From assembly GCF_003018235.1 (NCBI RefSeq), contig NZ_CP027437.1: a DNA stretch of 64,000 nucleotides; one strand, 5' to 3'. The DNA is from Escherichia coli (GTDB lineage: Bacteria > Pseudomonadota > Gammaproteobacteria > Enterobacterales > Enterobacteriaceae). Position numbers and translations under genes: made by a program. The notes under the pieces were generated by a model. That model saw only the letters and a program-made list of their open reading frames with translations, had not been told where the DNA came from and ran no database searches. Below, piece by piece: positions 34,476 to 35,960 of this stretch (position 1 is its first letter; every line of letters starts with the position of its first letter).

Positions 34476-35135
34476 ATAAAAAAAGCGGGGCCACCCCCGG
34501 GCCCCGACATAACGAAGTATCAGATGTTTATAATTATTAGCTTACTAACTGTGCCATATCAGAATACTGCAGGAAGTGATGTTGTTATCATTTTTGCAAG
34601 CAGGGCGTTTCTGGAGGGAATCGATTGGTGATGGAGTGTGCAATGATGAAGGGAATAAGCCTCTGCAAAACAAAAAAAGACTTTAACAAAATCAAGCTCG
34701 CTTAGTGGCGCATCTGCCCGTATCCGCACCAGTCGTCCGGAAAATGATTCAAACACCGGGCGGCAAAAGTATTACCAGTGTAGCAACCTGGAATGCGGCG
34801 TATGCTTCTCAACTCTGGCAGCTTTCCATAAATTCACATCGAAACACGCTTCCGGCGTTCACTCTTCAGAAGGTATCCCGTGGCATGAACTGCCAGCTTC
34901 ACACTGGTGAAACAATCAGATGACTTTTCCTTTACCTCAAATTAACAGGCAGAATTGCCGGAGTAACAAAAAAACGATAGATTACGCGCGGGTGCCTTTC
35001 GGCTGATGGTCGGAGGGAATACCCGAAGGCCAGATGTGGAAAGGCCCCGGAAAACACTTTTGTTTAACCGAGGCCCTAACCGTCTACCCTAAGCAAGTGA
35101 TAGGTTAGCGCCTCCCCGAAAAAGGAGCAAGCGCT

Positions 35136-35276
35136 ATGTCGCAAAAATCGCTGATCGCCATCACGCTCTGCGTGACAGCAACCCTCATCATCTGGATATT
35201 GCACGGTTCGCTGTGTGAGATACGGATGAGTTTCTGGGGAGCGGAGTTTGCGGCGTTCTTACAGTGTAAGCAGTAA
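35136..35276 (+). CDS. Hok/Gef-family type I toxin (46 aa)
   Basis: AAGGAG RBS; TM helix then SLCEIR...EFAAFLQCK matching Hok signature SLCEIRYRDGHREVAAF (from memory); structured flanking RNA. Confidence 0.6.
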   Translation: MSQKSLIAITLCVTATLIIWILHGSLCEIRMSFWGAEFAAFLQCKQ

Positions 35277-35417
35277 GGAGACCGCGACGGGGGAGTAATC
35301 CCCCGTCAATCGGTTGTCAGGGTAAGGTCGAAGTGGCACCCAAATTTAAATAGAGGCCCACCAGTAAGAGTAAGAGCGGTGGGCTTAGCACTTGTTTAAA
35401 TTTGAAAGGAATTCTTT

Positions 35418-35714
35418 ATGAGTGAAATGGTATTTTGTCGCGGCTGCGGCAAGGAAATACATAAAAATGCCATATCTTGCCCCAATTGTGGAGCACCTCA
35501 AAGAACAGCAAGTTCAAAAAGCAGGATTACAGCTGCACTACTGGCTTTCTTTTTTGGTGGTCTCGGTGCACACAAATTTTATTTAGGTAAAGTGGGACAA
35601 GGATTTCTTTATCTTATTTTTTGCTGGACATTCATTCCGGCAATCGTGGCTTTTATTGAGTTTATTATCTATCTATGCACCTCAGATGAAGATTTCGCCC
35701 GCAAATATGGCTGA
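35418..35714 (+). CDS. zinc-ribbon plus TM2-domain membrane protein (98 aa)
   Basis: CRGCG...CPNCG zinc ribbon; TM2-like motif FFFGGLGAHKFYLG and two TM helices. Confidence 0.6.
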   Translation: MSEMVFCRGCGKEIHKNAISCPNCGAPQRTASSKSRITAALLAFFFGGLGAHKFYLGKVGQGFLYLIFCWTFIPAIVAFIEFIIYLCTSDEDFARKYG

Positions 35715-35749
35715 CATCTAGCGGACGAATCAGAATGACAAACCCGCAA

Positions 35750-35780
35750 CCCGCAGCGTAAAAACTGCGGGTTTTCTTTT
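35750..35780 (+). terminator. intrinsic terminator after TM2-domain gene
   Basis: CCCGCAG...CTGCGGG hairpin followed by TTTTCTTTT. Confidence 0.6.
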
Positions 35781-35960
35781 GCTACCCATCACGAATGAGG
35801 GCACCATAAAGAAAGCCCACAGCATAGTGGTTGCGGGCTTTTTACATTCAAAGATGGACGTTTTATGGACATTGAAAGTTTAAATCCTTTAACTTTCAAC
35901 TGGTTGATGCTAATTTTAACGCACCCGAAGGCGCGTTGGCGATACACTCAATATAAAGGA

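Follow-up and report, generated by a model that had tools for sequence, protein, structure and literature searches.

A 46-residue Hok and its hok/sok-type module in a P2-like prophage remnant of Escherichia coli: a probable type I toxin–antitoxin system without mok

A 64,000-nucleotide (nt) stretch of Escherichia coli DNA (assembly GCF_003018235.1, contig NZ_CP027437.1), referred to here as the window, carries a Hok-type toxin gene within a prophage remnant. We propose, with a probability of about 0.6, that this gene belongs to an intact hok/sok-type type I toxin–antitoxin module of a distinct subfamily of 46-residue Hok peptides, and that the module works without mok, the upstream frame whose translation up to the hok Shine-Dalgarno (SD) sequence is mandatory in plasmid R1 (PMC9841398). 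It is nearly certain that the locus is a hok/sok-type module, and very probable that its subfamily has no functional mok. The self-contained module spans about 390 bp, from its promoter at 34955 to the end of the element fbi at 35341, and consists of the following parts:

34955 to 34983, plus strand: candidate hok mRNA promoter, read from the sequence, with -35 box TTGCCG (34955-34960), a 17-nt spacer and -10 box TAGATT (34978-34983).
34990 to 35004, plus strand: tac-like mRNA 5' end (GGGUGCCUUUCGGCU), pairing with fbi (35326-35341) or with an internal ucb-like box (35036-35048) in the minimum free energy (MFE) folds of the full-length and 3'-truncated RNA.
35034 to 35094, minus strand: predicted Sok-like antisense RNA of about 61 nt, with a single-stranded 5' tail (35094-35078), a hairpin (35077-35041) and then UUUCC.
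35070 to 35074, plus strand: GAGGC, a putative former mok SD, aligned through the Rfam model to the mok SD of hokC and of R1-type hok.
35102 to 35130, minus strand: candidate Sok promoter, with -35 box TTGCTC (35130-35125) overlapping the hok SD, a 17-nt spacer and -10 box TAACCT (35107-35102).
35109 to 35135, plus strand: predicted hok SD-sequestering hairpin, in which the anti-SD CCUCC (35111-35115) pairs with the SD GGAG (35124-35127), closed by GCGC/GCGC.
35136 to 35276, plus strand: hok coding sequence (CDS) for a 46-residue Hok/Gef peptide with an N-terminal transmembrane (TM) helix, an L-C-E motif and the C-terminus EFAAFLQCKQ, from profile matches and RefSeq.
35286 to 35307, plus strand: 3' stem-loop (GACGGGGGA/UCCCCCGUC), presumed to protect the 3' end of the processed active mRNA; 99.3% paired among relatives, with 4 of 9 pairs changed on both sides.
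35309 to 35341, plus strand: 3' inhibitory region, in which 35309-35324 is predicted to pair with the Sok target (35085-35101) and fbi (35326-35341, ending in GGCACCC) with the mRNA 5' end.

An earlier note on this DNA, made from the letters alone, had placed a Hok-family locus at 34980-35300 in highly structured RNA, and had identified neither an intact overlapping mok frame nor a sok antisense promoter. The locus is real, with bounds that were drawn too narrowly, and the results below uphold both the structured RNA and the missing mok frame; a candidate sok promoter can now be placed at 35130-35102 on the minus strand.

Unlike the R1 and K-12 loci, the window has no mok. A scan for any ATG-, GTG- or TTG-led open reading frame (ORF) crossing the hok SD found none in the window, and the same scan recovers mok in the R1-type hok and hokC controls, with its ATG at -57 and a GAGG 8 nt upstream. 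The GAGG is kept in the subfamily without a start codon after it: in an alignment of 49 distinct relatives, an ATG, GTG or TTG follows the conserved GAGG at 4-12 nt in none (0/49). By this alignment, the missing mok is a property of the whole 46-residue subfamily and not damage in the window copy. An in-frame Mok as in mokC, or an in-frame N-terminal extension of Hok, is ruled out by an invariant in-frame TAG (35106-35108) and by the conserved MSQK start of the peptide. We found no description of a mok-less hok variant in the literature, a phrase search having given nothing relevant, and this statement is limited to the library searched. In the R1 paradigm and in recent mutational work on R1, translation of mok is taken to be mandatory, and a natural mok-less subfamily would show that the coupling step is dispensable.

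Read from the sequences compared, the frame of mok relative to hok differs between close relatives. In the R1-type hok of the IncFII plasmid pMTY1886 the mok ATG lies 57 nt 5' of the hok ATG, so that Mok would be in frame with Hok and share its stop, as K-12 mokC does; in a paper on R1, the start codons of mok and hok are numbered 58 nt apart, which is out of frame (PMC9841398).

Toxin gene, and predicted transcript and antisense RNA

The ORF at 35136-35276 encodes the peptide MSQKSLIAITLCVTATLIIWILHGSLCEIRMSFWGAEFAAFLQCKQ and is preceded by the SD AAGGAG (35122-35127), 8 nt 5' of its ATG, confirming the 46-residue ORF with a good ribosome-binding site (RBS) that the earlier note had described. 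The Hok/Gef signature recognised there (a TM helix, SLCEIR at residues 25-30 and EFAAF at residues 37-41) is supported by a match to Pfam PF01848 (HOK_GEF; E 2.1e-6, model positions 4-42 of 42), by a match to PHROG 251 ("MokW-like host killing"; E 6.5e-21, positions 2-49 of 50) and by the RefSeq annotation of the ORF as the Hok/Gef family protein WP_097749594.1. This annotation was taken from NZ_CP076709.1 (E. coli O158:H23 CFIAFB20140388), which is 100% identical over 34900-35420 on its reverse strand. Alignment to Hok profiles, which the note had named as a check, thus holds for Pfam and PHROG and falls short of the curated cut-offs of NCBIfam. The conserved Hok residues listed in bioRxiv 10.1101/2025.08.07.668861 (M1, a C-x-T within the helix, L-C-E and a distal E) are present as M1, C12-V-T14, L26-C27-E28 and E37. 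Ratios of nonsynonymous to synonymous substitution (dN/dS) of 0.15-0.44 against relatives indicate that the ORF is under purifying selection and, together with the profile matches and the RefSeq annotation, that it is not a chance ORF.

At 46 residues the peptide stands at the short end of the Hok/Gef size range, compared with 50-52 residues for the R1 and K-12 peptides. Protein searches return a coherent subfamily of this length in E. coli, Shigella, Salmonella and Klebsiella, whose members all begin MSQK (or MSQKP); longer database proteins of 59-81 residues are singleton C-terminal read-throughs. The same subfamily is represented by "cluster 72" of Escalera-Maurer et al., by PHROG 251, in which "MokW-like" is a family name only, and by WP_097749594.1, entries that cover the peptide and not the RNA elements; the gene is also annotated in phages P88, Chuche and 500465-2, in Shiga toxin (Stx) phages and in IncI plasmids. 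A recent preprint (2025-26) catalogued 1264 Hok peptides in 61-79 clusters and tested 45 representatives, leaving Mok, Sok and the mRNA elements unanalysed, Mok being hard to call (bioRxiv 10.1101/2025.08.07.668861). The tested sequences in its Table S2 include 72_1621 (MSQKSLTAITFCVTAILIIWMLHGSLCEIRMSFWGAEFAAFLQCKQ) and 72_1589, and only three other sequences are named as non-toxic in its text, from which we infer that the cluster-72 representatives are toxic. The peptide 72_1621 is identical to that of the window at 42 of 46 residues (91%), and the four differences all fall at TM-helix positions; from the subfamily consensus, too, the window peptide departs at four TM positions. The locus itself is therefore known and common: it is annotated in RefSeq, its peptide cluster has been catalogued and a near-identical member has been tested for toxicity.

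The leader is matched by Rfam model RF01794 at 34990-35149 on the plus strand, over the full model (1-157), with E 2.4e-8 and 45.7 bits, and this full-length match gives the window the element order and spacing of the R1 and K-12 loci. On the K-12 hokC control the model scores 118.3 bits and covers the sense leader between the 5' end of the mRNA and the hok AUG, so its matches mark the hok strand, and the window mRNA should start near 34990 (GGGUGCC) in the register of the model. Although RF01794 is named "sok antitoxin", in K-12 hokC and in the window (34990-35149) it matches the hok sense strand and not the strand of the annotated sokC. The predicted leader of about 146 nt is shorter than the 168 nt of the R1-type copy on pMTY1886, where the hok AUG is at +169. 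Upstream, 18 diverse relatives keep the key promoter bases, TTG in the -35 hexamer and TA..(A/T)T in the -10 hexamer. The sole match of a consensus promoter scan, 35172-35200 on the plus strand, lies inside the CDS and was treated as chance, as was a minus-strand "terminator" at 35183-35153, also inside the CDS.

The fold-back expected of a hok mRNA is pronounced. A 403-nt transcript has an MFE of -173.6 kcal/mol (z -5.98), which 0/100 shuffles equal, and its full-length fold is closed by a 15-bp 5'-3' helix joining 34990-35004 to 35326-35341 (tac/fbi), a closure retained in the RNAalifold consensus of the 49 relatives. Over the full-length structure 30 pairs are changed on both sides against 14.3 in shuffles, a count reached by 0/500 shuffles. 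The tac/fbi helix is 92-95% paired in the relatives, and the natural fbi variants GGCAUCC, GGCACUC and GGUACCC all retain pairing via G-U; the changes are almost only from G-C to G-U, such that the covariation support for this helix appears moderate and mostly one-sided. The alternative 5' stem (34990-35003 with 35036-35048) is 99.1% paired, with 2 pairs changed on both sides. The clearest covariation is found in the 3' stem-loop (35286-35307) and in the helix between the Sok-target region and the 3' untranslated region (UTR) (35085-35101 with 35309-35324), where 7 pairs are changed on both sides.

A functional antisense RNA is predicted, with good support from the register of the Rfam match, an invariant -10 box and the stability of its hairpin. 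The ends of the annotated sokC were transferred after aligning the window and K-12 hokC to one Rfam model, and the resulting RNA is predicted to fold at -24.5 kcal/mol, leaving 13-17 nt free at the 5' end ahead of a long hairpin and UUUCC. In all of the 49 relatives the antisense strand has a more stable fold than the sense strand (mean difference -8.25 kcal/mol), because C·A mismatches of the sense strand turn into G·U pairs in the antisense, and the hairpin stem covaries between lineages. The candidate promoter occupies the position of the promoter upstream of the annotated sokC, and its -10 box TAACCT (sense AGGTTAG, 35102-35108) is invariant in 49/49 relatives. Both of its hexamers are weak, which explains why it was overlooked by the earlier note and by the promoter scan.

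These parts are those of R1 hok/mok/sok (parB) and of K-12 hokA-E: a Hok/Gef peptide, a stable folded mRNA with tac/fbi closure, an alternative 5' stem and a 3' stem-loop, and, as predicted here, a cis-antisense Sok on the leader whose promoter overlaps the hok SD region. The sigma-70 promoter at 34955-34983 would yield a stable mRNA of at least about 350 nt from near 34990. Following the R1 paradigm, the full-length RNA would be inert, slow 3' trimming to the stem-loop at 35286-35307 would take off fbi, and the freed 5' end would re-pair with 35036-35048 to give the active RNA. Sok would pair with the leader and lead to RNase III decay. If Sok production stopped, through loss of the element or shut-off of transcription, the stable mRNA pool would be translated and Hok would depolarise the inner membrane.

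Carriers and likely role

Module DNA is found in 1749 of 5426 complete E. coli genomes (about a third), in up to 9 places per genome. It is carried by the isolated P2-like phages P88, Chuche, 500465-2 and P884B11, by many Stx phages, and by IncI and other plasmids. The homology common to all copies (P88 and Chuche phages, Stx and lambdoid prophages, IncI plasmids and chromosomal copies) extends from about 34954-34969 to 35341, and its 3' limit against all other copies falls exactly at 35341. We take this constant span to delimit a mobile unit of about 390 bp. Among its contexts are places after ogr in P2-like prophages, and after lom or between J and the tail fibre gene in lambdoid prophages, Stx-phage copies being placed after lom; other copies lie near ykgM (a type B L31 protein gene), in tandem beside serS, or at chromosomal sites that have no phage genes. 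Over its leader and Sok region the window is identical to the isolated phage Chuche.

The most likely role, in our view, is addiction to or stabilisation of a mobile element. An alternative built on the same parts is that the module is a phage accessory that aids lysis or release on induction, as hokW-sokW of Sp5 does, or that it acts in abortive infection when a phage shuts off transcription. The hokW-sokW locus of Sakai prophage 5 and phage 933W is likewise prophage-borne, its antitoxin RNA being complementary to the 5' UTR; experiments identify it as a type I system to which RNase III and Hfq contribute, and it raises Sp5 release after mitomycin C (PMC8621323). Such a role fits the repeated presence of this module, in P2-like, lambdoid and Stx prophages, at late or cargo positions, and prophages show an enrichment of hok genes (bioRxiv 10.1101/2025.08.07.668861). 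However, HokW is a different Hok, a paralogue of 51 residues, 44% identical to R1 Hok (PMC8621323), that sits at another prophage position, and identity of the window peptide with HokW was rejected on its length. The module is also carried by IncI conjugative plasmids and at chromosomal sites free of phage genes, which fits a generic selfish stabilisation cassette. PADLOC gave no match for the Hok or the TM2 protein encoded downstream, and membership of a defence system was rejected on this ground. We therefore consider a phage-accessory role improbable, though it fares better than the alternatives discussed in the next section, and retain element stabilisation as the likelier function.

The most variable stretch of the otherwise conserved module is the predicted single-stranded Sok 5' tail with its target (35078-35096), and it covaries with the masking 3' UTR (35309-35324). 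Since one genome can have the module in up to 9 places, Sok specificity seems to have diversified between copies resident together. In E. coli JNEC-KY174, two modules with a 46-residue hok stand in tandem beside serS, about 475 bp apart, and the upstream copy is a divergent paralogue (MPQKTIIV...). A search of genome contigs with an alignment yielded only 7 loci. Three of these are near-identical copies on short contigs whose assemblies are named as Collinsella sp., Planococcaceae bacterium and Xanthomonas pisi, and they most likely reflect contamination with enterobacterial DNA or mis-binning.

A proposed mode of hok translation without mok

For the way in which hok might be translated without mok, folding suggests a tentative answer, to which we give slightly less than an even chance: a swap of the anti-SD between two partners. 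Translation of hok would be uncoupled from an upstream mok frame, and GCCUCC (35110-35115) would pair in two alternative ways. In the full-length RNA, or with Sok on the leader, it would pair with the hok SD (35124-35127) and close the RBS; in the processed RNA its GCCUC (35110-35114) would pair with GAGGC (35070-35074), which would act as an anti-anti-SD and leave the RBS open. The predicted folds assign GCCUCC these partners in turn: the hok SD in the full-length RNA, GAGGC after 3' truncation and the hok SD again when the Sok target is unavailable. The SD-sequestering hairpin has a local fold of -13.0 kcal/mol (z -3.62) and is 96-99% paired in the 49 relatives. It forms in the full-length and "Sok-bound" folds and is replaced in the 3'-truncated fold, where the stem 35070-35084/35099-35114 (about 90% paired across relatives) forms. 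The predicted costs of opening the RBS are as follows:

Full-length RNA: window hok 10.6 kcal/mol; R1-type control hok 19.9; R1-type control mok 13.6.
3'-truncated RNA: window hok 7.3 kcal/mol; R1-type control hok 19.2; R1-type control mok 7.2.
Truncated RNA with the Sok site blocked: window hok 11.1 kcal/mol; R1-type control hok 18.1.

In the R1-type control the hok RBS is closed in every state and the mok RBS switches, suggesting that the hok RBS of the subfamily behaves like the mok RBS of R1. Opening the window hok RBS is predicted to take about 8-12 kcal/mol less than opening its R1-type counterpart and, unlike the latter, the window RBS is predicted to switch between states by itself; its high-low-high pattern is repeated in 14 of 17 diverse relatives. 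Because Sok binding returns the anti-SD to the SD, Sok would block translation directly, besides causing decay. The absence of mok and the predicted direct RBS gate make this a regulatory variant of hok/sok, so far as folding can tell. We hypothesize, with the same reserve as for the swap, that a widespread mok-less lineage kept GAGGC as an RNA element, a rival of the hok SD for pairing with the anti-SD common to both, and that a three-state, riboswitch-like gate thereby replaces translational coupling. The subfamily would offer a simple test case of how, by swapping an anti-SD, an antisense RNA can gate the RBS of a toxin.

An ordinary hok/mok/sok locus whose mok has been destroyed would look similar in some respects. 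On this account Hok is never made, and the window holds a relic, silent and in decay, within a prophage remnant, comparable to the inactivated hok loci of the K-12 chromosome. Such a relic would explain why no ORF crosses the hok SD in the window, given that R1 needs mok translation up to that point (PMC9841398); it would also suit a locus within a 1.1-kb P2-like remnant with a truncated ogr, and Rfam and NCBIfam scores below curated cut-offs. Yet the mok start is missing in all 49 distinct relatives, isolated phages and conjugative plasmids included, and the leader is the same as that of phage Chuche. Purifying selection on the Hok ORF, the conservation of the promoters, tac, fbi and the Sok hairpin, and a predicted hok RBS far more accessible than in R1 (7-11 against 18-20 kcal/mol) are likewise at odds with decay, and we regard a relic as unlikely.

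Equally unlikely is that a short leader ORF replaces mok, either the 24 codons in the hok frame from ATG 35034 to TAG 35108 or a mini-ORF from GTG 35097 to the same TAG; termination 14 nt before the hok SD would melt the anti-SD hairpin and couple hok translation, and Sok would block the leader. The ATG at 35034 is present in 47 of the 49 relatives with AAGG 4 nt upstream, the TAG (35106-35108) is invariant and abuts the anti-SD, and the frame is covered by the Sok target. However, the Sok -10 box accounts for the invariance of the TAG, and the tac-partner box for that of the ATG, and the AAGG lies inside a conserved hairpin. The frame from ATG 35034 runs to 1, 6, 8, 10, 15, 17, 19, 21, 24, 29, 61, 78 or 79 codons across relatives, with an immediate stop in four and the ATG missing in two, and the Stx-phage and E. 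albertii copies lack GTG 35097. Both frames (35034-35108 and that from GTG 35097) were therefore rejected as conserved leader peptides.

Several observations weigh against an intact module that works without mok and against its predicted gate. First, the curated models are not reached, unlike for R1 and K-12: RF01794 scores 45.7 bits against a gathering score of 59, and the peptide scores 29.2 against 89 bits for the HokA equivalog NF007290 and 22.1 against 73 bits for the Hok subfamily NF007279. The nearest named paralogue by NCBIfam is HokA, and these sub-threshold scores suggest that the peptide is a Hok/Gef family member belonging to none of the named paralogues, and thus to a separate subfamily. 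At curated thresholds, RF01794 and the NCBIfam Hok models miss the 46-residue subfamily, which matters for annotation. Second, both promoters are weak by consensus and were unreported by the scan, that of hok agreeing at 8/12 positions (under the scan threshold) and that of Sok at 3/6 + 3/6 (6/12). Third, many of the 49 relatives are closely related to one another, and the slid-partner comparison (93.6% of cells paired in the full-length structure against about 42% for slid partners) is inflated, the tested structures having been derived from the window sequence itself. Fourth, a -1 frame ORF crosses the hok SD in 25 of the 49 relatives, so that an occasional Mok-like frame is possible there. 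Starting from TTG (-46) or ATG (-130), this frame has no SD and varies in its ends; neither the window nor any divergent lineage has it, and we treat it as incidental. Fifth, the TM2 cassette described below separates fbi from the only canonical terminator, so that in the window the true 3' terminus of the hok mRNA is uncertain, as is the processing that depends on it. Finally, the gating model rests on thermodynamic predictions 3-4 kcal/mol apart, the hok AUG is paired with 35247-35256 in both predicted states, and of the 17 diverse relatives three (L014, L099 and L100) have no RBS switch and L012 a weak one.

Prophage remnant and neighbouring genes

The module lies in a short remnant and is followed by further elements outside its core:

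34699 to 35821, plus strand: P2-like prophage remnant with a 5'-truncated ogr, hok/sok and TM2, from blastn comparison with phages P88 and Chuche and with a complete P2-like prophage, and from RefSeq.
35342 to 35782, plus strand: downstream context, with a hairpin without a T-run (35355-35385), a TM2-domain/zinc-ribbon gene (35418-35714) and an intrinsic terminator (35748-35782).

The 1.1-kb remnant joins the tail-fibre genes of a lambdoid prophage on its left and host raiA on its right. Its ogr lacks the first 12 nt and is called with 62 residues instead of 86. P2-like homology stops at 35821 and raiA begins at about 35961, some 140 nt on. The earlier note's placement of the toxin gene at a prophage end is thus correct; the remark that this placement is notable fares less well, since at least 1184 of 5426 complete E. 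coli genomes have the ogr-hok-TM2 arrangement. For phage biology, the module is another cargo gene at the ogr-att end of P2-like prophages. An identical prophage junction is present in strain SCU-111.

Between fbi and the intrinsic terminator lies a 406-bp cassette with a gene for a 98-residue protein of zinc-ribbon and TM2 domains (PHROG 10292, function unknown). In P88 and Chuche the terminator equivalent to 35748-35782 stands directly 3' of hok, and the TM2 insertion is common to most E. coli copies. The terminator at 35748-35782 is the only canonical one on the plus strand downstream of hok. As a T-run is lacking at the 35355-35385 hairpin, hok and TM2 may be transcribed together, and hok may be the first gene of a two-gene transcript.

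Other Rfam matches nearby (mir-1788, Arrc14, sraA, MicC, sraL and MicX) fall on terminator hairpins far under their gathering scores and were set aside as chance; the mir-1788 match (35760-35827, minus strand; 30 bits against a gathering score of 57, E 7e-4) covers the terminator hairpins between the TM2 gene and raiA. The adjoining lambdoid prophage carries, according to RefSeq, a P2 gpA-like replication endonuclease, two tRNA genes and several pseudogenes (J, T).

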